Source: an uncultured Gammaproteobacteria bacterium
Lineage (GTDB): Bacteria; Patescibacteriota; Patescibacteriia; UBA9934
Assembly: GCA_964582615.1 (NCBI GenBank)
Contig: CAZORP010000002.1
Span: 38,865 to 102,864, forward strand
Direction: 5' to 3'
DNA: 64,000 bases
This document shows, in pieces, positions 4,887 through 59,348 of this stretch. Each line of letters begins with the position of its first letter. The stretch's first letter is position 1. The notes beneath the pieces were generated by a model. It ran no database searches. It was given only the letters and a program-made list of their open reading frames with translations, and was not told the DNA's origin. The position numbers and the translations under genes were made by a program.

Positions 4887-4887
4887 G

Positions 4888-4921
4888 AAAAAACCCTCGA
4901 TGAATTTCGAGGGTTTTTTCT
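4888..4921 (+). terminator. Rho-independent terminator after tRNA-His
   Basis: CCCTCGA-tgaattt-TCGAGGG stem followed by TTTTTTC. Confidence 0.6.
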
Positions 4922-4986
4922 TTAAATTTGGCAAACATCATCCACCGATAACGTATTATTGGTTATCGGTATCGAATAAAAACAAA

Positions 4987-5040
4987 AGCGCACCCGGTAA
5001 GAGCGGCGAGCCGGATGGCTTCTGCCGCGCGGGTGCGCGA
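4987..5040 (-). terminator. GC-rich hairpin plus T-tract on the minus strand, downstream of the islet lipoprotein gene
   Basis: GCGCACCCG...CGGGTGCGC 9-bp stem; on the minus strand it is followed by TTTTGTTTTTATT. Confidence 0.4.
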
Positions 5041-5045
5041 GATGT

Positions 5046-5840
5046 CTACTCGACGATGGTGTAGCTGACCTTGTTATCGATGCCCGACCAGTCCCAGACG
5101 ATGTTGCCCGTGGTAGCATCCGTCCACTGCGAGTTGCCGAGGATGATGCTGATCGTGGATCCCACGGGGATGGTCTCGGTCGCAGTGAAGTCAAACTGGA
5201 TGATCTTGGTCGTGCCCGCGCTGACGTGGATCGTGCTCATGTTCCCGTTCACGCCGTTGAGCGGCGATCCCTGGTTGCTCACCTCATCCTTCCATACGTA
5301 GATGAGGTTGTTCACTTGCTGATCCAGGTCGTAGGGGCTGAACGTGATCCCGTCCGTGACGCTGGTGAAGTACATGGGGATGTTGCTGAGAGCGAGGTCG
5401 TCGATCCAGCAGACACCCGCTTCACACACCGAGTCCTGGACTTCGAACAGCGCGAGGTTCAGGTCGATGTCCCCGCACTCCAGCGCCGTCACCGCGATCT
5501 GATAGCGCGCCATCTCGCCCTGACGGATCTCGACGGCTGTATCGCCGATGTTGGAGAAGACCGCGAGCGATTCGGTCTCCACGTCGGGATTGGCGTACGG
5601 CTGGTTAACCAGGAAGCCGCACTCGTCGGAGGAGACGGGCTCGTCGCTCGCATCCTCTTCGGTCGTGGCGGTGTCGGTGGGATCCTCGGCTTCCACGCCC
5701 TCCTCGTTCGTCTCCGGCTCGCCACCGGTGACATCCGAGTTGGACGTGACGGGGGCGGCATCCTCGGTCTTCTGCGGCGCGAGGTTGTACTCGGAGCAGG
5801 CGGCGAGCAGGGGGAAAGAAACGGGGAGAATGGAACGCAT
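5046..5840 (-). CDS. Predicted secreted lipoprotein (lipobox LLAAC), acidic low-complexity linker plus beta-rich C-terminal domain; sits in a G+C-rich islet
   Basis: N-terminus MRSILPVSFPLLAACSE. GGAG ribosome-binding site 8 nt upstream. G+C is much higher than in the flanks, and ORFs are open on all frames across the locus. Confidence 0.55.
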   Translation of the reverse strand: MRSILPVSFPLLAACSEYNLAPQKTEDAAPVTSNSDVTGGEPETNEEGVEAEDPTDTATTEEDASDEPVSSDECGFLVNQPYANPDVETESLAVFSNIGDTAVEIRQGEMARYQIAVTALECGDIDLNLALFEVQDSVCEAGVCWIDDLALSNIPMYFTSVTDGITFSPYDLDQQVNNLIYVWKDEVSNQGSPLNGVNGNMSTIHVSAGTTKIIQFDFTATETIPVGSTISIILGNSQWTDATTGNIVWDWSGIDNKVSYTIVE

Positions 5841-5947
5841 GATAAACTCCGGGGGTTGAACCCAAGGGCGAAATGCCCATCTCTAGCCACCACAACATGG
5901 TGAATACAGATGGACACATTGCCTTAGGACCTCATCCCGAACTAGAA

Positions 5948-5976
5948 AATATAGCAAAAAAATGCACTTTTGTCAA
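5948..5976 (-). promoter_or_regulatory. Near-consensus sigma70-type promoter (TTGACA-17-TATATT) reading toward the islet lipoprotein gene
   Basis: Minus strand reads TTGACAaaagtgcatttttttgcTATATT. Confidence 0.4.
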
Positions 5977-6011
5977 TCAAAAATATCGTAAAAAAACTAA
6001 TAACTGATAAC

Positions 6012-6048
6012 GTTTTTCATAAAAAAACACCAAAAAAATTTGGTGTTT
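6012..6048 (-). terminator. Terminator hairpin 3' of tRNA-Arg
   Basis: AACACC-aaaaaaattt-GGTGTT with a T-run on the minus strand. Confidence 0.4.
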
Positions 6049-6050
6049 TG

Positions 6051-6127
6051 TGGTGCCTCGGGCAGGAATTGAACCTGCGACCTTGAGCTTAGAAGTCTCC
6101 TGCTCTATCCAACTGAGCTACCGAGGC
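6051..6127 (-). tRNA. tRNA-Arg (anticodon TCT) with encoded CCA; the anticodon stem has two terminal mismatches
   Basis: Reverse complement reads GCCTCGG-TA-GCTC-AGTTGGATA-GAGC-A-GGAGA-CTTCTAA-GCTCA-AGGTC-GCAGG-TTCAATT-CCTGC-CCGAGGC-A-CCA. Confidence 0.7.
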
Positions 6128-6175
6128 AAAAACAGGCTGAGTGTACGTGGTTTTTGCCAGGAGTACAATACCTCC

Positions 6176-6514
6176 ATGCTCACAACCGCCATCATTCTTT
6201 TTGGGGGACTTTTTGGCCTTGCGTTTCTTGGGGCACGTTTTCATGTTGTGCCTATCGCGCATTCGGCAATCTTCATAGCACTCGCTCTTTGCGGAATTGT
6301 CATCACATTTTCTCTCGCGCAAAAAAAATCTCGCACCATCCTTCCCAAGCAAAAATCATTCAATCCCATGGAAAAAAAATCCCAATCCCAATCCCAATCC
6401 CAATCCCAATCCCAATCCCAATCCCAGTCCGACGACCACGATCCATACCTCACCGATCTACTTGCACGCTTTGCGCGGCACCACGAATCTCAAGAAATCA
6501 AAAAAGAAGGTTAG
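6176..6514 (+). CDS. Small two-pass membrane protein with a C-terminal (SQ)8 repeat
   Basis: ATG at 6176 is in frame with the long ORF whose 5' part overlaps the tRNA. Translation MLTTAIILFGGLFGLAFLG...KKSQSQSQSQSQSQSQSDDHDPYLTDLL. Confidence 0.4.
   Translation: MLTTAIILFGGLFGLAFLGARFHVVPIAHSAIFIALALCGIVITFSLAQKKSRTILPKQKSFNPMEKKSQSQSQSQSQSQSQSQSDDHDPYLTDLLARFARHHESQEIKKEG
6378..6425 (+). repeat. Perfect hexanucleotide microsatellite (AATCCC/CCCAAT) x8 inside a coding region
   Basis: Direct read: aatcccaatcccaatccc..., 48 nt, encodes SQSQSQ. Confidence 0.95.
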
Positions 6515-7470
6515 TCCTTCTTTTTTCGTTCAGCATCATGAAATGCCTGATGAATTCGTTTAAGCTCTCGGTCAGTGACGTGCGTATACACCTGCGTTGT
6601 CGTGATCGACTCGTGGCCTAACATGGTTTGAACCGCGCGAATATCCGCGCCGTTACGCAAAAGATCCGTAGCAAACGTATGTCGAAGCGTATGTGGAGTT
6701 ACCGGCTTCGTAATGCCCGCCATTCGCGCATAGCGATCAACAAGACGCTGTACCGAACGAGGTGTAAGCGGCTTAGAAACGTCTCCCGCTTGAGATCCGC
6801 GACGCGCCTTGTCGTGACGAACAAAGAGAAAAGGCGCCACATCATCACGCTTTGCAAGATATGTTTTAATGGCATCCTTCGCCTCTCCTGAGAGAAATAC
6901 AAGGCGGTGTTTTTTACCTTTTCCAAGAACGGTAAATTCATCTCTCTCGAGGTTAATATGCTCAATGCGAAGTCCCGCAAGTTCCGAAACACGAAGTCCA
7001 GTAGAGAAAAAGAGCTCAAGAATGGCGCGATCACGATAGCCAAGAATCGTAGGGTCTTTCGACGGCTCATCAAGAATACGACGAAGTTCATCGCGCTCAA
7101 GAAACTCCACACTTCGAGATCCCTGCTTTGCAAGTTCGATTTTCTCGGGAGAAAGGGTTTTAACGTCGCGCTTTGCGAGATATTTTAAAAATGCCCGCAA
7201 GGCAATGAGGTGATAGTTTTGCGTGGCCTTGGCAAGCGAAGCGTCTTCACGACCAGCGATGTCTCGATTTAAAAATAAGCGAAAGTTTCTCACCATTTCA
7301 GCATCAATTTCCAGCGGAGCAGGGGACTTTGCCCATGTACTAAAGCGGCTCAAATAAAACCCGTAGTTTTTTACGGTCTTTTCCGAACGCCCACGCTCGA
7401 TTTCGAGATATTCAAGAAATTCTTTAATAAACGGCTCAAGACGCTTTCCCATAGGCTTACAGTATAGCAC
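6511..7470 (-). CDS. xerC: Tyrosine site-specific recombinase, XerC/XerD family
   Basis: 319 aa. C-terminal catalytic region reads LRHTFATDLLRNGADIRAVQTMLGHESITTTQVYTHV; a SAM-like N-terminal domain is present. Confidence 0.85.
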   Translation of the reverse strand: MLYCKPMGKRLEPFIKEFLEYLEIERGRSEKTVKNYGFYLSRFSTWAKSPAPLEIDAEMVRNFRLFLNRDIAGREDASLAKATQNYHLIALRAFLKYLAKRDVKTLSPEKIELAKQGSRSVEFLERDELRRILDEPSKDPTILGYRDRAILELFFSTGLRVSELAGLRIEHINLERDEFTVLGKGKKHRLVFLSGEAKDAIKTYLAKRDDVAPFLFVRHDKARRGSQAGDVSKPLTPRSVQRLVDRYARMAGITKPVTPHTLRHTFATDLLRNGADIRAVQTMLGHESITTTQVYTHVTDRELKRIHQAFHDAERKKKD

Positions 7471-7539
7471 TACGCGTCGTAAAAGATTACCGACTTGAAA
7501 TATGCGGAAAAATTTGCTAGGGTTAGCTACGGAGGTGCA

Positions 7540-7911
7540 ATGTCTCAGACCGAGAGGGCTCTAGCCCTCATCGTGGCGGTCGTTTGGCTAGCGATCGCCG
7601 CATTCAACGCGGCCGCGGGGGTCTCGGTTGGGACCCTCGCAAAAAACGTCGCCAAGGCGATCGCCACAGCCTTGGCTTTTTTCTTCGCCCTCACCTTGAG
7701 CGCCCTCGTGGCGTATGGGGTGGGTTACGAAGGAGTTTCCTTCTTTGGTCACCTGTGGGTGGCCAAAGAGATCTCGTGGGAGGCGGCCAAGTGTGGGACG
7801 GCCGTCTCCCTCATCACCGCCCTCGTCGCCGGCGTTTACACGCTGGCGACGATCGCCGGGTTGCTCGAAAGAGTGCCCGGCAAAAGCTTCCCGTCCCACA
7901 GGGAAGCCTAG
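7540..7911 (+). CDS. Small Ala/Val/Gly-rich polytopic membrane protein in G+C-rich islet 2; start uncertain (7495 or 7540)
   Basis: Translation MSQTERALALIVAVVWLAIAAFNAAAGVSVG.... Elevated G+C with ORFs open on several frames; followed by a strong terminator. Confidence 0.4.
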   Translation: MSQTERALALIVAVVWLAIAAFNAAAGVSVGTLAKNVAKAIATALAFFFALTLSALVAYGVGYEGVSFFGHLWVAKEISWEAAKCGTAVSLITALVAGVYTLATIAGLLERVPGKSFPSHREA

Positions 7912-7914
7912 GGT

Positions 7915-7952
7915 CTCACCCGATGTCGCATCTGCGTCATCGGGTCTTTTTT
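7915..7952 (+). terminator. Rho-independent terminator
   Basis: CACCCGATG-tcgcatctgcgt-CATCGGGT plus TCTTTTTT. Confidence 0.6.
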
Positions 7953-7983
7953 ATTGACGTTTTTTCTTTTCTTTTGTATACTC
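7953..7983 (+). promoter_or_regulatory. Candidate promoter for rpsO (TTGACG-19-TATACT)
   Basis: Hexamers read directly from the sequence; spacer slightly long. Confidence 0.3.
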
Positions 7984-8065
7984 TTACCGTCATTCTTATC
8001 ATGATTTTTTGTCTTGGTTTGGGGGTTGAGCTCCCTTTACTCAGCAAATAATCCATCTATGTCCT

Positions 8066-8332
8066 ATGCTCGCTAAAGAAAAAAAGGCAAAACTTATTAA
8101 GAAATTCCGAACGCACGATGCGGACACGGGATCCCCTCAGGTACAGGTAGCTATCCTTACCGAAGAAGTAAAGGAGCTTACCGCGCACCTCAAAACTCAC
8201 CGCAAGGACTTCAGCTCTCGCCGAGGATTGCTCAAGAAGGTCGCAGAACGCCGCCGCTTGCTCAAGTATCTCGAACGCGAAGATGCAAAAGCCTACGCAG
8301 AACTCATCGAGGCCTTGAACCTCAAGAAATAG
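8066..8332 (+). CDS. rpsO: 30S ribosomal protein S15
   Basis: 88 aa, ...GSPQVQVAILTEEVKELTAHLKTHRKDFSSRRGLLKKVAERRRLLKYL... Confidence 0.9.
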   Translation: MLAKEKKAKLIKKFRTHDADTGSPQVQVAILTEEVKELTAHLKTHRKDFSSRRGLLKKVAERRRLLKYLEREDAKAYAELIEALNLKK

Positions 8333-8338
8333 TAGAAG

Positions 8339-8368
8339 CCCCGCTCTTTGCCGAGTGGGGTTTTCTTC
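8339..8368 (+). terminator. Terminator or processing hairpin downstream of rpsO
   Basis: CCCCGCTC-tttgcc-GAGTGGGG (one G-U pair) plus TTTTCTTC. Confidence 0.4.
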
Positions 8369-8378
8369 ATATTTACCT

Positions 8379-8978
8379 ATGTTGCAATTTTCTTACGAAC
8401 ACCGTCGCGTTGGCGTTTTTATCGACGTGCAAAACATGTATTACAGCGCAAGAAATTTATTTACTCAAAAAGTGCATTTTGGAAATATCGTTCGTGAGGG
8501 CGTTGGAAAGCAAAAACTCGTTCGCGCCATCGCATACACTATCGCTACAAAACAAGGCGAGGAAGCGCCTTTCTTCGAAGCACTCAGCGGCATGGGGATC
8601 GAGCTCATGACAAAAGATCTTCTTGAGTACGAAGGAGGTCACAAGAAGGGGGATTGGGATGTCGGCATGACTATTGATATCGTTCGCATGCTTGATATGC
8701 TTGACGTCGTCATCCTTGTTTCAGGTGACGGCGACTACGTACCTCTTGGAGAATACGTTAAACAACGGGGAAGAATTTTTCACGTCATGTCGTTTCGCGA
8801 GTCAACATCGGGAAAACTTGTTTCTTGCGCAGATATTTATACCAATCTCTCGGAACGCCCAGACCTTTTTCTTCTTCGCGATCACCGTCGAGGATCTTCA
8901 CGAACATCTCAAAAAAAATCTTCACCTCCTAAATCACCTTCACAATCACCTTATGACTCAGAAATCTTATTCACGTAA
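8379..8978 (+). CDS. NYN-domain (LabA/PIN-like) putative RNase; probable start at the M of MLQFSYEHRR
   Basis: Motifs VGVFIDVQNMYY and DVVILVSGDGDY, with a low-complexity S/P-rich tail. Its 3' end overlaps the pnp start by 26 nt. Confidence 0.65.
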   Translation: MLQFSYEHRRVGVFIDVQNMYYSARNLFTQKVHFGNIVREGVGKQKLVRAIAYTIATKQGEEAPFFEALSGMGIELMTKDLLEYEGGHKKGDWDVGMTIDIVRMLDMLDVVILVSGDGDYVPLGEYVKQRGRIFHVMSFRESTSGKLVSCADIYTNLSERPDLFLLRDHRRGSSRTSQKKSSPPKSPSQSPYDSEILFT

Positions 8979-11163
8979 CTGGGGAGGGAAGACGCTCACT
9001 ATTGAAATTGGCCGCCTTGCAAAAGCCGCAAATGGAAGCTGTGTTGTTCGATACGGAGACACCGTACTTCTTGCAACCGCCGTCATGGCAAAAGAAGCAA
9101 AGCCAAATGCGGGTTTTTTTCCTCTCATGGTTGAATTCGAGGAACGTCTTTATGCGGCGGGACGCATCAAAGGATCTCGATTCATCAAGCGCGAAGGCAA
9201 GCCAACCGACGAGGCTGTTCTTACTTCACGCTTTATCGATCGCGCAATTCGCCCTCTTTTTGATAAGCGCATGGAAAACGACGTACAAGTCATCGTGACC
9301 GCGCTCGCTTTTGATGGAAAAAATGACGCCGACATTCCTGCACTTATTGCGGCATCATGCGCACTCCACATTTCTGACATTCCTTGGAATGGACCTCTTG
9401 CAGGGGCTCGCATTGCTCTTGGTGATGGTGAGAAAATTCTCAACCCCACCTATGAAGAGCGCGCTCGTTATCGCTGTGATATTGACGTTGCAGGAACAAA
9501 AGAAAAAACCATCATGCTCGAAGCATCTTGCGATGAAGCTCGCGAGGAAGATGTTTTTTCCGCTATTGTTTTTGGGCAACAATCACTGCAACCCGTCATT
9601 GAACTCATTGAAGAAGTCCGTCGCGACGTAGGAAAAGAAAAAGCTGATATCTTCCGCCTAAAAACCGATGCGCAACGCAGTGCCTTTGAGAAAAAGACCG
9701 CGGTCGCCACAGCGCTTCGACCATTTCTTGTTGAGCGCATTCATGAAACATTTTTCAACGTTCCTCATGCAACAAAAGCTGAGCGATCAGCAGCAAAAGA
9801 TGCGCTTAAAAAAGCCTCAGCAAGTCATCTCACCGAGCTTGGCTATGATGATGAGGCGATAAAAATGGGGCTCAGCACGGTAACCGAAGTTCTTGAAGCC
9901 GAAATCACTCGACGAATTCTTGATGAAGGACGCCGTGTTGACGGAAGAGGCCTCTACGACATTCGACCGCTTTTTGCAGAAGCGGCAGTTCTTCCCTGCG
10001 TTCACGGATCTGCACTTTTTGAGCGAGGAGAAACGCAAGTGCTTTCTGTGTGTACGCTTGGTGCTCCGGGAGACAAACAGACTCTCGATGGCATGGAACT
10101 TGTTGGAGAAAAGCGCTTCATGCATCACTATAACTTTCCACCCTATGCCGTTGGCGAAGCAAAGCCTGTACGCGGAACGGGACGTCGAGAAATTGGCCAC
10201 GGAGCACTAGCAGAAAAGGCCCTTGCCTTTATGATTCCCGAAAAGGAATCTTTCCCTTACGCAATTCGCGTCGTTTCTGAAACGCTTGGATCAAACGGTT
10301 CAAGCTCCATGGCTTCAACCTGCGGTGCAACGCTTGCACTCATGGATGCTGGAGTTCCCATAAAAGCTCCTGTTGGCGGCATTGCCATGGGACTTGCAAG
10401 CGATGGATCTCGCTATCAGGTCATTACCGATCTTCAAGACCTTGAAGACGGTGAAGGTGGTATGGATTTCAAAATCACCGGAACAAGAAAGGGTATTACT
10501 GCAATTCAACTCGATACTAAAACTGACGGACTTCCCGAAGAAATTATTCGAGAAACCCTCACCCGTGCACACACCGCGCGCATGCAGGTTCTTGATGTCA
10601 TGCAACAAGCCCTCACAGCTCCCCGTGCAGAGCTTTCGCCGAATGCCCCTCGCATTCTTCAACTCACCATTCATCCAGACAAAATTCGTGAAGTTATTGG
10701 ATCTGGAGGAAAAACTATCAACGAAATTATTGCAAAGACAGGTGTTATCACCATCGACATTGAGCAAACTGGCTTGGTGATGATTACTGCCGCAACCAAA
10801 GCATCTGCTGACGCGGCATATACTTGGATATATAATCTTACACGAGAGGTGACCGCCGGCGAGCTTTTTCAGGGTAAGGTTACAAGAATTATGGATTTCG
10901 GAGCCTTCGTTGAAGTTCTCCCCGGAAAAGAAGGGCTCGTTCACATTTCAGAACTTGCACCTTGGCGCGTTGAAAAGCCTCAGGATATCGTCACCGAGGG
11001 CGCTCTTGTTCACGTAAAAGTCCTCGAGATCGACGAGAAGGGGCGTATTAATCTCTCAATGAAAAAAGCTGAAGGAAATACCTACACCGACGAAATGCGT
11101 GCTAAGGCTCAAAAATCTCCAGCGCCACAAGCACCAAAGCCTGCACCACGGCAAACGCCATAA
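8953..11163 (+). CDS. pnp: Polynucleotide phosphorylase
   Basis: Two RNase PH domains, a KH domain and a C-terminal S1 domain (GKVTRIMDFGAFVEVLPGKEGLVHISEL). Start chosen at MTQKSYSRNWGGKTL; the longer ORF extension upstream is not supported. Confidence 0.95.
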   Translation: MTQKSYSRNWGGKTLTIEIGRLAKAANGSCVVRYGDTVLLATAVMAKEAKPNAGFFPLMVEFEERLYAAGRIKGSRFIKREGKPTDEAVLTSRFIDRAIRPLFDKRMENDVQVIVTALAFDGKNDADIPALIAASCALHISDIPWNGPLAGARIALGDGEKILNPTYEERARYRCDIDVAGTKEKTIMLEASCDEAREEDVFSAIVFGQQSLQPVIELIEEVRRDVGKEKADIFRLKTDAQRSAFEKKTAVATALRPFLVERIHETFFNVPHATKAERSAAKDALKKASASHLTELGYDDEAIKMGLSTVTEVLEAEITRRILDEGRRVDGRGLYDIRPLFAEAAVLPCVHGSALFERGETQVLSVCTLGAPGDKQTLDGMELVGEKRFMHHYNFPPYAVGEAKPVRGTGRREIGHGALAEKALAFMIPEKESFPYAIRVVSETLGSNGSSSMASTCGATLALMDAGVPIKAPVGGIAMGLASDGSRYQVITDLQDLEDGEGGMDFKITGTRKGITAIQLDTKTDGLPEEIIRETLTRAHTARMQVLDVMQQALTAPRAELSPNAPRILQLTIHPDKIREVIGSGGKTINEIIAKTGVITIDIEQTGLVMITAATKASADAAYTWIYNLTREVTAGELFQGKVTRIMDFGAFVEVLPGKEGLVHISELAPWRVEKPQDIVTEGALVHVKVLEIDEKGRINLSMKKAEGNTYTDEMRAKAQKSPAPQAPKPAPRQTP

Positions 11164-11172
11164 CTATAACCT

Positions 11173-21094: not shown

Positions 21095-21174
21095 TTATGC
21101 ACAAGTTATCCACAACCCCTGTGGAAAAGGGTAATTTTTAGCTAATCTTCGCAAGATTGTACCCTGTGGATAAA
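21095..21174. promoter_or_regulatory. DnaA-box cluster upstream of dnaA
   Basis: TTATGCACA, TTATCCACA and TGTGGATAA read directly from the sequence. Confidence 0.55.
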
Positions 21175-21231
21175 ATGGGTATTATCCTCGCAGTCATCTT
21201 TTATTCCCCCGCTAGAAAAAGGTTCTTCGAT

Positions 21232-22608
21232 ATGAATACTCACGAGCTTTGGGAGGCCGTCCTTGCAGAACTTGAACTAAAACTCAGTAGAGCAAATTTT
21301 ACCACATGGTTTAATAAGACCTTTATCGCCGAATACCACATGGGGGATGTGGTCATCGGAACGCCAAATACTATCAATGCGTCTTGGCTTGAAAAGCGCC
21401 ACCATAAAGACATCATTAATGCGATTGAAAATGTCACCAATCAGCCCGTAAGAAGCCTCGGTTATCGCGTTGAAACAAAAAGCACCGGTCCTCAACCGCT
21501 TGTTCTTGAGCAACAAAAAACCACACCTCAAGACCTTGGCTTTAGCACTGGTCCCGATATTCCACCACCATCAGGAAATATCGCCATCAATCCTCAACAA
21601 ACCTTTGGAACATTCGTGGTAGGAAAACAGAACGAACTCGCTCACGCGGCGGCACAAGCAGTTGCTTCGCATCCCGGAGGAACCTACAATCCTCTTTTTA
21701 TTTACGGAGGTGTCGGACTTGGAAAAACCCACCTTCTCCACGCAATCGCTAATGAAATCCGTCGAAAGTGGCAAAGTGCCCGCATTATGTATGTTACTTG
21801 TGAGCACTTCACAAATGATTTTATTCACTCCGTACGATCGGGAAAAGGAAAGGAGTTCAAAGATCGCTACCGCAACGTTGACCTTCTTCTTATTGATGAC
21901 ATTCAGTTCATTACAGGAAAAGAGGGGACTCAGGAGGAGTTTTTTCACACGTTTAATGCACTTCATCAAGACAACCGCCAGATCGTCATTTCTTCCGACA
22001 GGCCTCCGAAATCCATCGCGGGGCTCGAAAAACGCCTTCAGTCTCGCCTTGAGTGGGGAATGCTCGTTGACGTAGGAACTCCAGACCTCGAAACACGCAT
22101 CGCTATTCTTGAGAGAAAATGCTCAGAAAAACAAGCAAATCTTTCTTCGGACATCCTTCACTATATCGCAGGAAATATCGTTTCAAACATTCGTGAACTT
22201 GAAGGGGCTCTCAATAAAATCATCGCCGTACACGAATTTCGAAACATGCCACCAACACTCGAATCCATAAAGCCAATCATTGCGAGCTTCGAATCTGAAA
22301 ATATTAAAAAAACCGTTACACCAAAGCAGGTTATCAGCGTTGTCGCAGAATATTTCGATATCACCACTGATGATGTTCTTGGAAAAAGCCGCGAGAAACG
22401 CCTCGCTTTTCCTCGACAAATCATCATGTATCTTCTGCGAGAAGAGATGAGTTCCTCCTATCCAACCATTGGAGCCGAGCTTGGCGGCCGTGATCACACG
22501 ACCGCCATGCATGCCCATGGAAAGATTAAGGAGCTTCTCGAGGTTGGGGACGAGAAGCTTATCAAAGACCTCGAACTCATTCGCCAACGTCTTTACATGG
22601 GTGCTTAA
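21232..22608 (+). CDS. dnaA: Chromosomal replication initiator DnaA (start at MNTHELWEAVL)
   Basis: AAA+ Walker A GGVGLGKTHL, sensor motifs and a C-terminal DNA-binding domain. Confidence 0.95.
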   Translation: MNTHELWEAVLAELELKLSRANFTTWFNKTFIAEYHMGDVVIGTPNTINASWLEKRHHKDIINAIENVTNQPVRSLGYRVETKSTGPQPLVLEQQKTTPQDLGFSTGPDIPPPSGNIAINPQQTFGTFVVGKQNELAHAAAQAVASHPGGTYNPLFIYGGVGLGKTHLLHAIANEIRRKWQSARIMYVTCEHFTNDFIHSVRSGKGKEFKDRYRNVDLLLIDDIQFITGKEGTQEEFFHTFNALHQDNRQIVISSDRPPKSIAGLEKRLQSRLEWGMLVDVGTPDLETRIAILERKCSEKQANLSSDILHYIAGNIVSNIRELEGALNKIIAVHEFRNMPPTLESIKPIIASFESENIKKTVTPKQVISVVAEYFDITTDDVLGKSREKRLAFPRQIIMYLLREEMSSSYPTIGAELGGRDHTTAMHAHGKIKELLEVGDEKLIKDLELIRQRLYMGA

Positions 22609-22609
22609 C

Positions 22610-22920
22610 TTATCCACAACTTCATCCACATGTGGATAAAACGTTCGGTTTTTGTCGGTGTGGATAACGTCGGGATAAGTCTCTGGATAACTTGTGGGTA
22701 TGTCTGTGGGTATCTTGTGGATGAAGTGTGGAGAACTTTCACTGGGATTTCCCTTCGAAAAGGTTATCCCCATTCTCCACAGAGTTATCCCCCAAGGGTG
22801 TGGAAAACTTTTTTAAAAAATCCCTTTATTCCGTGGGTTTTTAAGAAGTTATCCCCGCTATCCACAAGCTTACTATTACTATCTTTATTTATAAATAATT
22901 AAAACCTGTTAGGCTAGGCA
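22610..22920. promoter_or_regulatory. Putative oriC: DnaA-box array plus AT-rich unwinding element between dnaA and dnaN
   Basis: At least six TTATCCACA/TGTGGATAA boxes and variants (22610, 22631, 22659, 22763, 22785, 22866), followed by ctatctttatttataaataattaaaac. Confidence 0.65.
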
Positions 22921-22954
22921 CAGCACTTTCCTTATCAACCATAAACCGTATTCT

Positions 22955-24088
22955 GTGAAATTTTCCTGTACAAAAGATAACTTCCACATCGGTCTTGCAC
23001 TTACAGGTCATTTAGGTGCAAAAAATGCCAACCTCCCGGTTCTTAACAATATCCTTCTCCAAGCAGAAGTTGGTGGAGTTCGTCTTACGGCAACAAACCT
23101 TGATATTACGGTCTCATGCACAATGCGAGCCAAGGTTGATCAAGCGGGATCCTACACACTTCCCGCAAAGCTTCTTACTGAATACGTTGGCCTTCTTCCG
23201 GATGACCGTGTAGATGTAGATCTGCTTGATACTTCCGTTTCTCTTCGTTCAGCGGGTTCGCGAACAAAAATGCACGGCCTTTCTGCGGCTGAATTTCCTG
23301 CAATTCCTCGAGTAAGTGGAGGTACGGTATATACCGTTGCAGCACAAAAATTTGACGAAGCTCTTGGGCAAACGCTTTTTGCAGTTTCAACAAGTGAAGC
23401 TCGACAGATTCTCACAGGAGCCTTTTTGCATTTTCACGGAGATACAAAGACGGTAACCGTCGCCGCTACGGATAGTTATCGCCTTGGCGAAAAGAGCGCC
23501 CCGCTTGTCAGTGAAACACTTGGTGAGCGAAAGGTTGTCGTTCCCGCTCGAACACTTTCTGAAGTTCGAAGAATTCTCAGTGTGCTTCGTGGAAGTTCTG
23601 AACCCGTTGAGACGATTGATGTTGAACTTACGGAAAATCAAATAGCATTTCGTTGTGGAACGGTTGAACTTTCTTCAAGAACAATTGATGGCGTCTATCC
23701 AGACTATCGTCAAATTATTCCAAAGACATTTACCACGGAGCTTGTTGTTGAGAGGGGTGCGCTGATTCAGGCGGTAAAGCGTACGGCGCTTTTTGCGAAA
23801 AATGGACTCTTTGATGTTCGCTTTGAAGTGGTTCCTGATGAGAAAATTCTTCGTCTTACAGCAAATGATGTTGGTCGTGGAGAAAATGAAGTGACTATTC
23901 CCGCGGAGATTGTGGGAAATGCAAACGCGGTGACACTCAATTTCCGTTATCTCCTTGATGGTGCGCTGGCAATTGGTTCAGAATCTTTGCGTATAAAGAT
24001 GATCGATGCAATGAATCCTTGTATTCTTCTTCCGCAGGGTCAGGAAAAGGCTGAGTACTTCTATATCGTCATGCCAATTCGACAGTAG
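22955..24088 (+). CDS. dnaN: DNA polymerase III beta sliding clamp
   Basis: 377 aa with the three-domain clamp pattern; MKFSCTKDNF N-terminus. Confidence 0.9.
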   Translation: MKFSCTKDNFHIGLALTGHLGAKNANLPVLNNILLQAEVGGVRLTATNLDITVSCTMRAKVDQAGSYTLPAKLLTEYVGLLPDDRVDVDLLDTSVSLRSAGSRTKMHGLSAAEFPAIPRVSGGTVYTVAAQKFDEALGQTLFAVSTSEARQILTGAFLHFHGDTKTVTVAATDSYRLGEKSAPLVSETLGERKVVVPARTLSEVRRILSVLRGSSEPVETIDVELTENQIAFRCGTVELSSRTIDGVYPDYRQIIPKTFTTELVVERGALIQAVKRTALFAKNGLFDVRFEVVPDEKILRLTANDVGRGENEVTIPAEIVGNANAVTLNFRYLLDGALAIGSESLRIKMIDAMNPCILLPQGQEKAEYFYIVMPIRQ

Positions 24089-35687: not shown

Positions 35688-35777
<90 letters not shown>

Positions 35778-38900: not shown

Positions 38901-39296
38901 GTTATACGAGGACTAAATCCTTTAGAGAATGTTATTAACCACCTTTCAGCAAGGAGTTTTTTCACGGCATTTATAAAATATGCAAACGAACTCGCTCAAA
39001 GATCGGGAAGGGTCTTGGCTATTGTTATTGATGATCATTGTGGAGGATCGTCTACAAATAGACCTGTCATGTATGAGCTTCTTGCGAGTTTGCGAAGTTC
39101 GCTTGAGAAGGTGACGCTCAAATCGCCTCAAGATACCACGTTTAATGGTTATAACATTGTTAACGAAACATATTTTGTTTCAGAGGAACTCCTAGGGGAT
39201 CAAAATGACTATTCTTATGGTAGAGAATTTCCTGGATTTGGGAAAATGAAGGAGATTTTTCCTAAAGATTTTTCTCTAAAACCTCAAGCTCGTTAA
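35982..39296 (+). CDS. Large (1104 aa) orphan cytoplasmic protein rich in K/E/F/N/L/I, probably alpha-helical; no recognisable family
   Basis: Single uninterrupted ORF, A+T-richer than the neighbouring genes, no signal peptide. The C-terminal third carries Cys/His motifs (SDACWAGKYG, VIDDHCGG). Confidence 0.6.
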   Translation: MQEKERSSKRFEVKLGLQEVAENEEEQKLKIDGLVDALFLAIEKNDPYFQTSFARSEMTHIMNGLFSPRDREYFLVGVLKKNPELALGFGKFFQESESIVLKYLCDENLDESTRLRISEAAIGAFDVIHNIRLLEAIEKQLSFESLWRFRKKFGYSDESFVRMHGVISFIRNRFFSDIPSWLREEIKRKSLEVIVYSDEFIFWEIMDNLENIGISHDEIYDKFASKGKLHVLAPYVKLFSREKHEGILESCLKHDKHSLNKYWQNFYIHDLRKFLKRVLDLDCEIFGFDARSFSSFFSRRQEFFHEEESHAEGYSHDLQGEYEACINFFIESSLPKEFFEFCKLQKIHIQEDWIKRIAEKYKGDLFIIQNLPMLRHIRKLPEISSLSIHEFLDSYFRYNLGEAPIVEIFLRRHDFPELVTNETFLAYFGNTKFFWKNFEALDIPNKEKFLRVSYISDALLEHFEALNEPTKKILVRNLLDECLHHQGLINIENFFQNEEKRKYLSDKDIVDVIFGNDTRFYWSQDFLQDLLMSRRNSKELAQKILEGNLSEGRQEEEWNAYTINFILTNFEVKIHDKPFLFCKENIGNFFSKKTYHAVKDIFLGKKDSEACADFCITESGDKALLQLRKKIQEMKLRMYNPNFLDKDLFENNVYLEIFKNAVRFSEAQFHGDNPTIHRIISNFYNAESLGEVKSLDPYYQYNLSEKVERLRTVKVEDFSDGSRVRYGYLKSRIMAAGELAKRSDIFSFSVKKIEEKISHEIKRLNDLLEKLKNPIARENVFKKILDLQNIKLRSLESFQENFHKICSENIANDDVLEMLFAYALRKVPDNQSPLIALRGSKSPSIEDMSRVVEFCEHVVVDMVWKRFFTQKEYRKTLFGIANCNALTDEIVRSQNAESRGFIDMEFFATRGILMEFSGHFSDACWAGKYGSIAKNFPNMFTSVFVQNKGTKYERIVGCSMFIETVAVDGTPLLVIRGLNPLENVINHLSARSFFTAFIKYANELAQRSGRVLAIVIDDHCGGSSTNRPVMYELLASLRSSLEKVTLKSPQDTTFNGYNIVNETYFVSEELLGDQNDYSYGREFPGFGKMKEIFPKDFSLKPQAR

Positions 39297-53757: not shown

Positions 53758-53848
53758 AGGAGGACATTCTATCGGTTTTTGTTCGGTATGCCCATGAGGG
53801 TTGCGGAAAAGCGTAAAACATGAAAAAATACCCATCGTTAAATGATGA

Positions 53849-53934: not shown

Positions 53935-53983
53935 AAAGCGTCTTTACGGGCGCTTTTTTATGTAAGAAAAATTTTGCTAGACT

Positions 53984-54481
53984 GTGGTATCTATGGAAAA
54001 ACAATTTCGTCAGAATGCGGCGGTGATCATTATCAATAGCAAACAGCAGGTACTGCTTTGCGAACGAGGATTTCCTGGATATGCTGAAAGAACTTTGCAA
54101 ACCGTGCAAGGTGGTATTGATCCTGGAGAAACGCCGCAAGAAGCGGCTGAGCGAGAGCTCTGCGAAGAGCTTGGTGTTACTTCTCAGGACTTTGTTATTC
54201 TCAAAAAACTTCCAGAAACATTTTCGTACGAATGGCCAAAGGAGTACATTGAAGAGTCTCGAGAAAAATATCCAAATAATCCCTATATCGGACAAGAACA
54301 GCATTTTTTTCTTGCACGCATGAGGGATGATGTTCACTTTAATCTTGACGCAACACATCGAGAGTTTGATCGAGTGTATTGGGGGAGTGCAAAAGAGCTT
54401 TATGAGGGCGTATGGGAAGCGAAGCGTCCGGGAATTTCCGCGGCATTACGTGGATTTGGCCTTATGGAGATCTCGGGATAA
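53984..54481 (+). CDS. NUDIX hydrolase
   Basis: Nudix box GGIDPGETPQEAAERELCEELGV. Confidence 0.8.
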   Translation: MVSMEKQFRQNAAVIIINSKQQVLLCERGFPGYAERTLQTVQGGIDPGETPQEAAERELCEELGVTSQDFVILKKLPETFSYEWPKEYIEESREKYPNNPYIGQEQHFFLARMRDDVHFNLDATHREFDRVYWGSAKELYEGVWEAKRPGISAALRGFGLMEISG

Positions 54482-55517: not shown

Positions 55518-55572
55518 ACGAGGACGTATAATATGTCACGAATTGTTCATGTGCAAGCATGAATATTCTCGA

Positions 55573-55647
<75 letters not shown>

Positions 55648-55744
55648 GAAAAACCTTTCACTTCGGTGAAGGGTTTTTCTTTTTTGAGAAAAAAATTTTC
55701 AACAATAAAGCATTTTTCATGAAAAATCAAGGCATGCTATTCTG

Positions 55745-56155
55745 TTGAAGACTATGATTTCCATTCTCTTATCAGTTATTTTTAGTATTATTCTCGGATC
55801 TCTTTGGTATTCTCCAGCTACTCCCATGGGAACATACTGGATGAACGTGATGGGCTTTTCTCGTCCAAAGACCATGACCTCCGAAGTTAAAAAGAGCATG
55901 TACAGGGCATATCTCGGGTCCATGCTTTCCTCAACGATACTTTTCACTGTATATACAACACTTTCCCGCATGATTGGATCGGTGACATTGGAGGAATATC
56001 TTCTACTTGCGGGAATGTTGTGGATTGGATGTTTTGTTCCCGCGTTTGGCGGAAGTGTTCTTTGGGAGGGGAAGCCTTTCAAGCTCTATGCGGTCCATGT
56101 TGGATACTACCTCGCCCTTCTCCTTGGATGCGCAATAATTACGGCGGCGTTATAA
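55745..56155 (+). CDS. Small polytopic membrane protein (DUF1761-like)
   Basis: 136 aa with four hydrophobic helices. Preferred over the antisense ORF 55717..56082. Confidence 0.4.
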   Translation: MKTMISILLSVIFSIILGSLWYSPATPMGTYWMNVMGFSRPKTMTSEVKKSMYRAYLGSMLSSTILFTVYTTLSRMIGSVTLEEYLLLAGMLWIGCFVPAFGGSVLWEGKPFKLYAVHVGYYLALLLGCAIITAAL

Positions 56156-56160
56156 GGAAA

Positions 56161-56196
56161 GAAAAAAACCACGAGACGATGCTCGTGGTTTTTTAT
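56161..56196. terminator. Bidirectional terminator
   Basis: aaaaaaACCACGAGacgatgCTCGTGGTtttttatt. Confidence 0.6.
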
Positions 56197-56402
56197 TATG
56201 CTACCGATGGAGCGCCTTGCTCTTCGCGCATCTTTCTATACACCCAACTAATGCCGGATTTGTTTCCCACACGAAACTGATCTCGAGCAACCGAGAAAAC
56301 AAAATTTCTCAGTTCAACTTGCATATCTTCTGGCATATCAAATTTTCGCATGAGAGCTTCAAAGTTGTCTGAAATTTTTTCGTACCAAGATTGTTTTTCC
56401 AT
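56196..56402 (-). CDS. Small hypothetical protein (start at MEKQSWYEK)
   Basis: Short ORF downstream of the LTD gene. Confidence 0.3.
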   Translation of the reverse strand: MEKQSWYEKISDNFEALMRKFDMPEDMQVELRNFVFSVARDQFRVGNKSGISWVYRKMREEQGAPSVA

Positions 56403-56409
56403 AGAGAGA

Positions 56410-58809
56410 TTAAAAAGAAAAAAGATGTCGTTTATTTCTGAATACCCAGTACCCACCAGCGCCAAGAGTTCCGAGAATTCCTGATCCGCCAAGTGCGAAT
56501 GAAAAGGGAACTGAGGGTTCTTTGGCGTGAATTTCTTCAGATGGTCTTAAGGGTTGTGCCGGTGTTTGTGATAGTGATCCTGTTATTTTTGAGATTATAG
56601 GTGAATGTTCTTGTTTGGTGATTTTTTGCACATCATTAAAGGATCTTGGAAGAAGAATAAGCTTTCCATCTTCATGGCGAGATATTCCAACGATATGAAA
56701 TCGATCGCCAACGGAGAGTCCGCTAAACGCCTTTGTCTTTGCGTCATCTCTTCCAAAGAAAGTGTCACCTTCGGTGGTGAGAAATTGAAAGAGCCCATCT
56801 TCTTTTCCCTGAAGAGATCCTTCCGCAAAGAGTAATGATGATTCGTAAGATGTGATTTTTGAATCTTCCGCAATCGCCTCGGATGCGGTTTCGTGAACGA
56901 TGAAGATGTCATCTGCTGAAGTTATGACAATTCTTGGAACATCCTCCTGAAGGGTGATTTTTCCTTGAACGCGAAGTGTCATTTCTTGAGTGATTGTTGG
57001 CCATGAGGCTTTGTAAAAATATACCTGTATACCCTGAAGGTACATTGTTCGTTTTCCAAAGATTCCGGGAACCGCAAGAACATTTCCTTGGTAGCTCACA
57101 AGTTCTCCTTCGGCAAGTGAAGAAATTTCCTCGCGAAGAATTGATCGATAAGATGAAGGGATTTTTTCTTCATCACGTTGTTTCTCCTTGACTGATATTT
57201 TTGGTGATTCTTTTACTTGTGTGAAAGATATTTCCTGAACTTGAGGTGCTTCAATTAGGGATGTTTTGGTCTGAGAATGATTTGCTCCTGAAGAAGTTTC
57301 TTCAGGGGAAGGAGAAGCTCCTTGAGTGGGTGAAGGCTCGTTGATGGATTCGGTGATCGTGGTTTTGATGATTTCATACGTGGGAATCATGGGTGATTCG
57401 TTTGATTTCTCTTCTAGTGAAGAAGTTGTTTGAGTTTGTTGTGTTGTGCAAATATTTTCTCCCTCGGGAGTCGGCGTGAGCGGCATTTTCCAAGCATCAT
57501 TACAGCGTCCTGCGGAAAAGCCTTTTGGTGGTGCGGGAAAAGTTTCTGTTCCGTACGTGAGGGTAAAGAATACGGTTCCATCAATAGTTTTAAGCTGAAG
57601 AGTATCTCCGTTGTTGTTAAGTTTTCCTTTTGGATTTCTAAGAAGGAGAAGGTGATGCGCGGGAAGCATTTCTTCGATAACCGTTTGTTTTCCTGAGCCT
57701 TCTTCAAACACAACGCTTCCTGAGGGAACATCTGCATTACCGGTATTTTCTATCTCAACCCATTCATCTTCCGAGATGGGGGAGCTAAGAAATTCTTGAA
57801 TGTGCACGCCAATAAGCGAAATGATTTCTCGTGGCGACGGTGATGGTGTGGGAAGTGGGTGTGGATCATCTTCTTGCATGGGTTCTTCCGCGACTTCTTC
57901 CGATGAAGTTACTATCAAAGGTTCTGGAAGAAGAAAATCCTGCATTGACGTCACTTCCTCATCTTCAGAAGGATCTTTTTGAGGTTCTTGAACGAGTTCC
58001 TCGGTGAGATCTTCTTCGTGAGGATCTATTGCACTATCGAGAGAATCTTCTTGCGGGTCATATTCTTCGATAGTTGCTTCGGTGTCTGTAGAGGCCTCCT
58101 CCCGAGTCTCGATTTCTATAAGCGTGTCTTCTGTGGAGGGTGTAGCACTCCCCGGAACCTCATTTTCTGAGGATGAAGGCGTCTCTAAGGTGGGACTGTT
58201 ATTTGCAAGAGAAGACTCCTCAGAGATCTCGGCTTCCGCGATCAAAAAGAATTCTTCAGGTGGAGCTCCGGGTGTTCCGCACCACGCTCCATGCAAATCG
58301 TCGTAGCATTGTTGCGATGTTTTCCACGCTCCCCATTCTCCTTGCTCTGCGCTTGCGTGAGGATTTGTTCTCCCAAAACTCGGGGTTGTGTAGGTAAAGC
58401 TATCAAGAATATTTCCTTGAACATCTTTGAGCTGAAGATTTCCCTGTGTATTGGGAATACTCAAATGTGCAGTAACAAGGTTTGGCGCTACGCTAAGTAC
58501 ACTCTTAGCGTCGCCAAGATTGTAATTGGCGACAAGAAATACTTGATGTGAGTTAAGTTCGTAGGCGGGAAGTACGAGAGGATCACTTCCTGATGCGCCA
58601 GTCACAACAATGCCGTCAAGATTTATGGCGCTGTTGGTTGGATTGAAGATTTCCAACCACTCATCGGCGGTTGATAGAGGAGATCCTCCCCATGCGACTT
58701 CTGAAAAAATGAGTCGGTAGTCTTCTTTTTGGATTTCCTGCGCACGTGCAGAAAGAGCACCGAAGAAGAGCATAATGCTAAGGATTCCTGTGCGAATAAC
58801 ATAGCTCAT
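56410..58809 (-). CDS. Surface protein with two lamin-tail-domain (LTD)-like modules, a long acidic/Pro-rich linker and a C-terminal transmembrane anchor
   Basis: Signal peptide MSYVIRTGILSIMLFFGALSARAQE. LTD-like segments EVAWGGSPLSTADEWLEIFNPTNSAINLDGIVV and HIQEFLSSPISEDEWVEIENTGNADV. C-terminus GILGTLGAGGYWVFRNKR. Confidence 0.55.
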   Translation of the reverse strand: MSYVIRTGILSIMLFFGALSARAQEIQKEDYRLIFSEVAWGGSPLSTADEWLEIFNPTNSAINLDGIVVTGASGSDPLVLPAYELNSHQVFLVANYNLGDAKSVLSVAPNLVTAHLSIPNTQGNLQLKDVQGNILDSFTYTTPSFGRTNPHASAEQGEWGAWKTSQQCYDDLHGAWCGTPGAPPEEFFLIAEAEISEESSLANNSPTLETPSSSENEVPGSATPSTEDTLIEIETREEASTDTEATIEEYDPQEDSLDSAIDPHEEDLTEELVQEPQKDPSEDEEVTSMQDFLLPEPLIVTSSEEVAEEPMQEDDPHPLPTPSPSPREIISLIGVHIQEFLSSPISEDEWVEIENTGNADVPSGSVVFEEGSGKQTVIEEMLPAHHLLLLRNPKGKLNNNGDTLQLKTIDGTVFFTLTYGTETFPAPPKGFSAGRCNDAWKMPLTPTPEGENICTTQQTQTTSSLEEKSNESPMIPTYEIIKTTITESINEPSPTQGASPSPEETSSGANHSQTKTSLIEAPQVQEISFTQVKESPKISVKEKQRDEEKIPSSYRSILREEISSLAEGELVSYQGNVLAVPGIFGKRTMYLQGIQVYFYKASWPTITQEMTLRVQGKITLQEDVPRIVITSADDIFIVHETASEAIAEDSKITSYESSLLFAEGSLQGKEDGLFQFLTTEGDTFFGRDDAKTKAFSGLSVGDRFHIVGISRHEDGKLILLPRSFNDVQKITKQEHSPIISKITGSLSQTPAQPLRPSEEIHAKEPSVPFSFALGGSGILGTLGAGGYWVFRNKRHLFSF

Positions 58810-59003
58810 GGAATTAAATACAGGTGAATAAAACGACGTCGTGCAAAACAAAAACTCCCAAACATCGCAAAAATTGCGACGGGGAGTTTTGTCTGCCAAT
58901 CTACATTACCACGGTATTCTTCCGCGCATGGATGCCTGTGGAAAAGAAAAAACCGACCCCTACGTGTAAGGGTCGGTGCAGGGTGCGGCACCTATGATGG
59001 CCT

Positions 59004-59255
59004 CTATCGCCAAGGACGCTGGTGTGCCCTTGGGAAGGTTGAGCGCCTTTCGTGTCGCCGCGCATCCCTCAGATCAATGTGGACCGTCCGTTCGACGACG
59101 TCCACACTGTCGCTTGCCCTAGCCTCTTCGAGCAAGCGGAGAAGTCCTTCGCCGTCGCCTCGTATGACGACAGCGATGACGTGTTTTTTTCCATCACCGC
59201 CTGTGAAGGCGACGATGATGGAGGTGGTGCCTTGTGTCCGCGGTGGGTCGGACAT
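59004..59255 (-). CDS. Small (84 aa) hypothetical protein in G+C-rich islet 3
   Basis: Strong AAGGAGA ribosome-binding site 6 nt upstream of the ATG. Translation MSDPPRTQGTTSIIVAFTGGDGKKHVIAVVIRGDGEGLLRLLEEA... Confidence 0.45.
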   Translation of the reverse strand: MSDPPRTQGTTSIIVAFTGGDGKKHVIAVVIRGDGEGLLRLLEEARASDSVDVVERTVHIDLRDARRHERRSTFPRAHQRPWR

Positions 59256-59348
59256 TTCTCTCCTTGTTTTTCCCGAAATTGAGAAAAACATCACAGGTTA
59301 GCATATTTTTTGCTTTTTTTCAAGAGGAGCCTAAAAGGTCCTCGATAA

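Follow-up and report, generated by a model that had tools for sequence, protein, structure and literature searches.

The question raised by this locus is how three short G+C-rich segments, each holding one small gene, came to lie in a bacterial chromosome of ~45% G+C. The window, meaning the whole stretch of 64,000 nucleotides that was analyzed (contig CAZORP010000002.1 of assembly GCA_964582615.1, positions 38,865 to 102,864 of the forward strand), contains the three segments referred to here as islets 1, 2, and 3. A first-pass annotation had interpreted them as small horizontally acquired cassettes integrated at the 3' ends of tRNA genes, possibly moved by a XerC-like recombinase encoded nearby. 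The reading favored here, at a probability of roughly 0.55, is that the islets are three unrelated, self-contained single-gene units of foreign composition that were acquired horizontally and became fixed in permissive spacers of a Candidatus Uhrbacteria chromosome. Islet 1 would have lodged between two convergent tRNA genes whose terminators stand back to back, islet 2 between the divergent start of xerC and the rpsO promoter, and islet 3 in the spacer that separates a tRNA terminator from the end of a large gene for a surface protein, and such units may persist where insertion is harmless. Horizontal acquisition was supported by foreign composition and lineage-specific presence, most strongly for islet 1, while the integration mechanism proposed earlier was not.

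Composition and chromosomal setting of the islets

Sliding-window analysis gave a G+C content of 45.6% for the window, with a standard deviation (SD) of 5.5% across 150-bp windows, and only three segments in its whole length had at least 57% G+C over more than ~ 210 bp. These lie at positions 4960-5924 (islet 1, 60.3% G+C), 7485-7970 (islet 2, 58.2%), and 58907-59268 (islet 3, 58.0%), so that the composition is not uniform and the three conspicuous segments of the first-pass annotation were borne out. One small gene had been assigned to each, and this too held, the best open reading frame (ORF) being 5046-5840 on the minus strand in islet 1 (264 aa), 7540-7911 on the plus strand in islet 2 (123 aa), and 59004-59255 on the minus strand in islet 3 (83 aa). 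The G+C content at third codon positions (GC3) of these ORFs was 0.87, 0.79, and 0.63, respectively, against 0.27-0.48 for other genes of the window (background ~ 0.39) and 0.56-0.58 for rpsT and rpsO. The promoter, Shine-Dalgarno, and terminator signals named earlier were also found, as sequence motifs. The three islets share no relationship with one another, and islets 2 and 3 were single-copy across the window and all fetched loci; being mutually unrelated, the islets do not represent copies of a single cassette type. Searches of the three proteins against Pfam, PHROGs, NCBIfam, and PADLOC gave nothing usable, and scans of viral contigs found no relatives of any of them. The earlier statement that the products had no obvious family was thus correct for curated libraries, although islet 1 belongs to an uncharacterized family described below.

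The chromosomal setting was compared in the xerC loci of 80 species representatives, with XerC 58-81% identical, whose records are titled Candidatus Uhrbacteria, Patescibacteria, Parcubacteria group or, in many third-party annotation (TPA) assemblies, 'uncultured Gammaproteobacteria'. The order pnp, NYN-domain gene, rpsO, xerC, tRNA-Arg(TCT), tRNA-His, polA recurred in most of the 80 where the contig reached, and no relative of any of the three islet proteins was encoded at these loci. The gap between rpsO and xerC varied from 147 bp to 6.8 kb among the relatives, and that between tRNA-Arg and tRNA-His from 2 bp to more than 7 kb, with changes of orientation. In the closest relative (locus L010), the rpsO-xerC gap is 395 bp long with 44% G+C and represents an empty islet 2 site. 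At two other loci (L029 and L031), tRNA-Arg and tRNA-His are convergent, 69 and 121 bp apart, with only two terminator hairpins between them. The presence/absence comparison called for earlier therefore showed the islet genes to be absent from the syntenic sites of 80 species, with empty sites for islets 1 and 2, and it supports the islets being lineage-specific insertions, the relatives having been compared at the islet 1 and islet 2 sites. A metagenome scan with a TMEM43-like neighbor as query, meant to locate the counterpart of the islet 3 site in related genomes, gave no match.

The rpsO promoter (TTGACG-17-TATACT, 7954-7982) and a leader segment, GTCTTGGTTTGGGGGTTGAGCTCCCTTTACT, together spanning 7954-8065, are conserved with L010 and L016, and this sets the right-hand limit of islet 2. 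G+C-rich stretches occurring in the rpsO-xerC gap of some relatives were considered as counterparts of islet 2 and rejected, having no shared sequence, no clear ORF, and ordinary folding (z of +0.9 to -4.6). As a separate observation, many Uhrbacteria carry G+C-rich stretches of 0.3-1.7 kb just upstream of polA, between the tRNA-Arg/His pair and polA (L012, L021, L023, L026, L034, L044, L046, and others), which lie 10-18 percentage points above background and hold ORFs of no known family. A 420-aa protein encoded upstream of polA is common to L031, L046, and L050, and the adjoining gene in L046 has a GC3 of 0.98.

The codon usage of islet 1 followed the pattern of a high-GC genome: the frequency of A at third positions (A3) was 0.04, and GAG, CAG, CTG, and GCG, all rarely used by the host, were favored. 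Its dinucleotide signature was more deviant than those of 300 of 300 random segments, and its 3' untranslated region (UTR) was likewise G+C-rich. One alternative is that the islets hold native, very highly expressed genes whose G+C content reflects translational selection for codons ending in C or G. The raised GC3 of rpsO and rpsT indicates that an expression-linked bias toward C-ending codons does exist in this genome, and the G+C-richness of the islet 1 protein family, being confined to the coding region and mainly to third positions, fits the same explanation. However, the ribosomal-protein genes of the host show only a shift from T to C at third positions, keep an A3 of 0.24, and prefer GAA, GCA, and GGA, a pattern far from the A3 of islet 1 and the host-rare codons that it favors. 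The G+C-rich 3' UTR of islet 1, the absence of the islet genes from syntenic sites in the 80 relatives, and the presence of the islet 1 family at different loci in different genomes also argue against native genes, which are considered a very unlikely explanation. The idea that ORFs of outlying GC3 are common in Uhrbacteria was rejected as well, only 8 of 1428 ORFs exceeding the local median by 0.3.

Because the window derives from a metagenome-assembled genome, it could be that fragments of a higher-GC organism were joined to it at conserved tRNA sequences during assembly. Separately assembled Logan contigs (run SRR16481183) were 100% identical to the window over 4854-6107 and 56004-59450, so that the transitions in G+C content lie inside single contigs: contig L090 covers both the AT-rich promoter spacer and the G+C-rich gene of islet 1, and contig L007 joins islet 3 to the neighboring 829-aa gene. 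In favor of a chimera, the two ends of the islet 1 Logan contig fall within the flanking tRNA genes, the islet 3 contig stops within tRNA-Leu, and members of the islet 1 family are mostly found on contigs of 1-3 kb. Against it stand the sharp transitions within L090 and L007, the recurrence of a G+C-rich gene in lower-GC flanks in long contigs and in one complete chromosome, and the lack of tRNA flanks at islet 2; a chimeric assembly is accordingly given very little credence.

The islet 1 transcription unit and its lipoprotein family

Islet 1 has the layout of a complete transcription unit on the minus strand. A promoter-like site (TTGACA-17-TATATT with an upstream TG, 11 of 12 matches; 5976->5948) lies in AT-rich DNA outside the G+C-rich part, and is followed by a 67-nt 5' leader (5857-5923) that forms a 19-bp hairpin and then reads GGGCAYYCGCCC, by a GGAG Shine-Dalgarno sequence (5849->5846), by the gene (5046-5840), and by a 3' UTR (4989-5045) in which a G+C-rich terminator hairpin (GCGCACCCG...CGGGTGCGC) precedes TTTTGTTTTT. 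The terminator hairpin is homologous with those of family members at L004, L008, L009, and L097. The leader, as defined using RNAalifold and covariance model R1, is common to the window, L004, L098, and L001, with compensatory changes at 8 of the 19 pairs in the RNAalifold alignment of these four sequences. A search of 1.45 Mb with R1 returned two further copies, both at family loci (L001 8805-8870 and L003 3748-3811), and nothing convincing in the 80 xerC loci. Islet 1 appears to travel as a unit made up of a sigma-70-like promoter, the 67-nt leader hairpin, a Shine-Dalgarno sequence, the ORF, and the conserved hairpin terminator. The whole unit is bracketed by a direct repeat matching at 12 of 14 positions, ACCGATAACGTATT at 4944-4957 and ACTGATAACGTTTT at 6003-6016. 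A repeat at least this good was found in 21 of 90 mismatched flank pairs used as a control, and the bracketing repeat is possibly due to chance.

The product of islet 1 begins with a signal peptide (MRSILPVSFPLLAAC) bearing the lipobox LLAAC, with the cysteine at position 15, and the sequence was classed as a bacterial lipoprotein; at least 90% of family sequences retain Cys15. It continues with an acidic, low-confidence linker of ~ 55 aa and a beta-sandwich domain of ~ 190 aa with four cysteines. Residues 73-264 were modeled confidently as a beta sandwich by AlphaFold2 (AF2), with a predicted local distance difference test score (pLDDT) of ~ 85, and a fold search with this domain returned only generic immunoglobulin-like, adhesin, and toxin receptor-binding sandwiches at template modeling (TM) scores of ~ 0.5 or less. 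When the window gene was compared with that of L008, the ratio of nonsynonymous to synonymous substitution rates (dN/dS) was 0.11 in the domain-coding part and 0.75 in the part encoding the signal peptide and linker; judged by these ratios, the gene is under purifying selection. The precursor would be exported and lipid-anchored at Cys15, and the acidic tether would keep the beta-sandwich domain, in which disulfides could form, at the cell surface, where this domain would most plausibly serve as a binding or adhesion module in a host-dependent lineage.

Eleven close relatives of the islet 1 protein were retrieved by a word-indexed search among 5.8 billion proteins, and profile searching against 1.84 billion representatives yielded 56 clusters, nearly all of ~ 260 aa. 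The few organism names given for family members were Patescibacteria or Uhrbacteria only, and a metagenome scan with the family alignment yielded only two loci. On these sequence matches, islet 1 appears to be one member of a rare family of lipoproteins encountered only in Patescibacteria. The genomic contexts of its members differ from one genome to another, and include positions near ychF, in the rplY-ftsW interval, adjacent to a Fic gene, upstream of glmS, and alongside the ATP synthase operon, among others. GC3 was 0.63-0.93 in all 12 members for which DNA was available, in hosts of median G+C 0.43-0.59, and the G+C-rich stretch was essentially limited to the gene. This composition extends to deeply diverged members. 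No donor lineage of higher G+C content, of the kind that the first-pass annotation had suggested looking for, was found.

Evidence for movement and recombination of the islet 1 unit came from comparison of the family loci. The window gene is 92% identical to that of L008 over the 624 nt that encode the domain, with homology bounded by the start codon on one side and by a point 22 nt beyond the stop on the other. At locus L096, in the complete chromosome OZ246408.1 of a member of the Patescibacteria, a perfect 116-bp direct repeat at 5885-6000 and 6908-7023 brackets the family gene upstream of glmS, ending exactly at the start codon and resuming 58 nt after the stop. The possibility that this repeat is a glmS ribozyme was rejected, there being no Rfam match. 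Loci L003 and L004 are collinear, with 75-85% identity that includes the first 147 nt of the gene, and their mature domains are unrelated. The shared slot, L003 3962-4571 and L004 8147-8767, has the order rplY, lipoprotein gene, gene for a 94-aa protein, ftsW, and in it the signal-peptide-coding part has been kept and the mature domain swapped. Related units thus occupy different chromosomal places in other genomes, and the mature domain is swappable behind a conserved signal-peptide region. Units of the islet 1 type would on this evidence be spread by horizontal transfer and recombination, rather than by a tRNA-targeting integrase or XerC.

Two further loci were observed. Locus L001 contains near-identical 66-nt leader hairpins at 8805-8870 and 9266-9331, 461 bp apart from start to start, which precede different consecutive ORFs, for a soluble protein of ~ 117 aa and for a second lipoprotein, and which with the first lipoprotein gene form a small G+C-rich array. 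At L097, positions 2628-2666 upstream of the family gene resemble a tRNA 3' half and are identical at 20 of 21 positions to the T-arm of a downstream tRNA-Thr (3732-3807); this fragment was called as a tRNA or tmRNA by neither ARAGORN nor Rfam.

Recombination of this kind also bears on where the G+C content of the family comes from. It could have arisen and been maintained in situ, for instance through GC-biased gene conversion acting on very frequently recombining genes, with no import from a high-GC genome. That every member is GC3-rich whatever the G+C content of its host, the deeply diverged ones included, that recombination within the family is seen in the L003/L004 domain swap and the duplicated L001 leaders, and that no high-GC donor was found are all consistent with this. 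The dinucleotide signature and the G+C-rich 3' UTR, however, fit import equally well, and the first insertion at an empty site is left unexplained; enrichment in place is regarded as unlikely. Under the favored reading of horizontal acquisition, the lasting GC3 richness of the family may reflect either an unseen pool of high-GC donors or recombination-linked GC enrichment.

Coding status and folding of islets 2 and 3

The ORF of islet 2 is preceded by a GGAGG Shine-Dalgarno sequence (7531-7535, plus strand) and followed by a terminator (7918-7951) that consists of a 13-bp hairpin (ACCCGATGTCGCA/TGCGTCATCGGGT, 7918-7945) and a T run. Its product has three predicted membrane helices. The G+C content by codon position is 0.59/0.50/0.79, and this frame has few arginines and less G+C at first codon positions (GC1) than at third, while the other frames give junk rich in Arg, Gly, and Pro; by these features it looks like a genuine three-helix membrane protein. 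The ORF of islet 3, on the minus strand, has an AAGGAGA Shine-Dalgarno sequence (59265->59259), a 10-bp hairpin directly 5' of the ribosome-binding site (59265-59290), and an intrinsic terminator (58977-58952). An 84-aa soluble protein had been annotated here, and the ORF is present with a length of 83 aa. It is a less convincing gene because its G+C content by codon position is 0.67/0.50/0.63, with GC3 below GC1, and because a single-sequence AF2 model reached a pLDDT of only 55 and was uninformative. A protein search returned no relative for islet 2 and only itself for islet 3.

The most unusual property of these two islets is the predicted folding of their transcripts. Relative to dinucleotide shuffles, islet 2 gave fold z scores of -9.8 to -9.95 on the plus strand and -9.3 on the minus strand, and islet 3 gave -7.3 to -7.4 on the coding strand and -3.4 on the complement, while the two halves of islet 1, on both strands, gave -1.2 to -2.1. 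Control values were a mean of -1.5 (SD 1.7) for random segments of the window and of -1.35 (SD 2.4) for GC-matched Uhrbacteria segments, and the two most negative of the latter that could be placed (-7.0 and -5.3) overlap tRNA genes. With shuffles that preserve both the protein and the codon usage, islet 2 still reached a z of -7.4 and islet 3 one of -4.85, while islet 1 stood at -0.5. Islet 2 is tiled by about 13 unbroken helices of 6-13 bp and islet 3 by about 10, the ORF of islet 3 carrying helices of 8-12 bp. The eight Uhrbacteria ORFs of outlying GC3 had no significant Pfam or PHROG match, and none folds like islet 2 (minimum z -4.7).

One interpretation of these data is that islets 2 and 3 are structured noncoding RNA genes and that their open frames are a by-product of stop-poor, G+C-rich sequence. 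The z scores far below the control means, the survival of the excess folding in protein- and codon-preserving shuffles, the terminator that each islet possesses, and the several frames open in each are in line with such genes, as are, for islet 3, a GC3 that is not the highest of the codon positions, the poor AF2 model, and a coding strand that folds far better than its complement. On the other hand, islets 2 and 3 gave nothing at Rfam gathering scores and only subthreshold noise at E <= 1 (across the window, relatives, and family loci Rfam returned tRNAs and rRNA only), and both lack homologs from which covariation could be read. Both ORFs have strong, well-spaced Shine-Dalgarno sequences, the frame of islet 2 yields a convincing membrane protein with few arginines and GC1 below GC3, and islet 2 folds equally well on either strand. 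RNA genes are thus possible, though on balance unlikely. Under the favored reading, islets 2 and 3 are orphan units with exceptionally base-paired transcripts, encoding a putative three-helix membrane protein and a putative 83-aa protein; such folding could belong either to an mRNA of high stability or under regulation or to the product of an RNA gene. Within islet 2, copies of the palindrome GCGATCGC were observed at 7591-7598 and 7657-7664, three being present in the whole window. As a hint of cyanobacterial origin these were judged too weak, because both islet 2 copies encode Ala-Ile-Ala.

A bolder reading takes islet 1 as part of a cassette system specific to Patescibacteria, in which compact units marked by hairpins are exchanged and stacked while keeping their own high GC3, and takes islets 2 and 3 as a new, hyper-structured G+C-rich RNA or mini-gene element. 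The near-identical L001 hairpins between ORFs, the 116-bp duplication at L096, and the domain swaps are the grounds for the first part. As a whole it is quite improbable.

tRNA genes, XerC, and comparison with known systems

Seven tRNA genes were called in the window by ARAGORN. Islet 1 is flanked by tRNA-His(GTG) (4813-4886, plus strand; ARAGORN, Rfam), with its own terminator-like hairpin at 4886-4921 found by hairpin search, and by tRNA-Arg(TCT) (6051-6127, minus strand; ARAGORN, Rfam), with its own hairpin at 6024-6049, the two genes converging upon the islet. tRNA-Leu(TAG) (59383-59467, minus strand; ARAGORN), with its own hairpin at 59350-59382, shares the strand of islet 3 and precedes it by 128 nt. 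Islet 2, between the xerC start (7470) and the rpsO promoter (7954), adjoins no tRNA gene, and the description of all three islets as lying 3' of a tRNA gene was upheld for islets 1 and 3 only. When the islets were removed, 31% of the 4370 intergenic bases of the window lay in spacers touching a tRNA gene, so that two of three islets beside a tRNA gene is not beyond chance (P ~ 0.22-0.24), and the ~ 3 of 12 islet 1 family members with an adjacent tRNA gene match the same baseline.

Were a tyrosine recombinase, whether the neighboring XerC-like enzyme or a trans-acting helper, to integrate cassettes site-specifically at tRNA 3' ends, this would account for the position of islets 1 and 3, for the tRNA genes within ~ 150 bp of the family members L097 and L098, and for the T-arm-like fragment upstream of the L097 gene; moreover, Xer recombinases are hijacked by some mobile elements. 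However, a repeat search for attachment (att) sites, the check proposed with this idea, found no copy of a tRNA 3' end at the border of any of the three islets, the sole tRNA-His-like match (13 of 15) lying inside the coding region. The islets begin beyond the terminator hairpin of each adjacent tRNA gene, most family loci have no tRNA gene nearby, and the observed adjacency equals the chance expectation. The recombinase gene, xerC (6511-7470, minus strand; Pfam, NCBIfam, and synteny), lies outside all the islets and holds the same position in the 80 species without islet genes. Its best-matching models were XerC, XerD, and XerA, and it scored 143 bits against a cut-off of 265 with the integron-integrase subfamily model, which marks it as a housekeeping chromosome-dimer recombinase. 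Neither integration at tRNA 3' ends nor a role for the adjacent recombinase as mover was sustained, and the explanation as a whole is highly improbable.

Other features of the window were recorded beside these genes. An 1104-aa ORF without a Pfam family (35982-39296, 35% G+C, GC3 0.29) starts ~ 200 bp 3' of tRNA-Ser(CGA) (35688-35777) and forms a compositional island of opposite sign, the low-GC stretch extending from 36351 to ~ 39640. Between tRNA-Arg and xerC, a run of ~ 8 copies of the hexamer CCCAAT (6379-6427) lies inside a plus-strand ORF (6179-6514), where it encodes (SQ)n. Genes assigned from ORF translations, without a family test, as dnaA and dnaN (21157-24088) lie at the minimum of the cumulative GC skew, which would place the replication origin near 22.7 kb, and a 23S rRNA gene begins at 61886.

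Several points weigh against horizontal acquisition as set out above. No insertion mechanism is evident for the islets of the window, the repeat flanking islet 1 matching at only 12 of 14 positions, and the end of the islet 1 Logan contig in both tRNA genes means that the original assembly supplies the link between this islet and the chromosome. No donor lineage was found for the islet 1 family, and because all members seen are richer in G+C than their own hosts, recent arrival from a high-GC genome is supported for none of them. Islets 2 and 3 had no homologs in protein, viral-contig, plasmid, and phage BLAST searches (DNA and protein), their dinucleotide signatures were not outliers, and G+C content is the one feature that points to their foreign origin. 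Their extreme folding is not foreseen by a simple model of transfer.

Bacteria of the candidate phyla radiation, with their tiny genomes, rely on host cells, and to our knowledge little is known of how they gain and vary their surface proteins. Nothing on G+C-rich single-gene islets such as these was found in the literature. Here, a surface-lipoprotein unit, complete with promoter, leader, and terminator around its gene, reappears at unrelated chromosomal sites with a composition unlike that of any host; its conserved leader RNA is a candidate cis-regulatory or recombination signal. The folding of the two orphan units is strong enough to suggest selection on nucleic-acid structure. The locus also carries a caution, namely that in compact genomes proximity to tRNA or recombinase genes is no evidence of site-specific integration.

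Among known systems, genomic islets, meaning small ORFan genes of atypical composition gained by horizontal transfer and located in variable intergenic hot spots, share with the islets of the window an atypical G+C content, codon use and, for islet 1 only, dinucleotide signature, together with presence in a single lineage, absence from the syntenic sites of relatives, and spacers of variable length and content. The islets of the window differ in holding a single gene each without a mobility gene, and two of them differ in their abnormal structure; the islet 1 family differs in its high GC3 in every host, with no drift toward host composition. With tRNA-associated integrative islands they share a foreign composition and a position close to tRNA 3' ends, with a tyrosine recombinase gene in the vicinity; unlike such islands, they have neither att duplication nor an integrase of their own, the recombinase being a conserved housekeeping Xer protein, and they are inserted beyond the tRNA terminators and measure 0.4-1 kb rather than several kb or more.

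Palindromic repeat elements and miniature inverted-repeat transposable elements (MITEs) occur in multiple copies per genome and have terminal inverted repeats, whereas islets 2 and 3 are single-copy within the 64 kb and the fetched loci and are unrelated to each other. A type I toxin system comprises a membrane peptide of less than ~ 60 aa and an overlapping antisense RNA; islet 2 encodes 123 aa with three helices, a promoter scan found no antisense promoter there, and the likeness is confined to the highly folded mRNA.

Integron cassettes resemble the islet 1-type units in their compact single-ORF form, the genome encodes a recombinase of the Xer/IntI superfamily, and at L001 imperfect hairpins of 66 nt, almost identical to each other and with a conserved outer stem and a variable inner stem, lie between consecutive family ORFs. 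Islet 1 differs in having its own promoter and T-run terminator and in carrying the hairpin as a leader 5' of the ORF. No attC core sites were seen on reading islet 1 by eye, no search with an attC model having been made, the recombinase of the window scored below the integron-integrase cut-off, and the window contains no array.

The remaining comparison is with variable surface lipoproteins such as those of mycoplasmas. The islet 1 family has no sequence relationship to these, and neither phase-variation machinery nor multigene arrays are evident in the window. The likeness, which is drawn from general knowledge, would lie in a conserved signal peptide and lipobox combined with diverse or exchangeable mature domains, in a host-associated lineage of small genomes, and in a fast-evolving linker.

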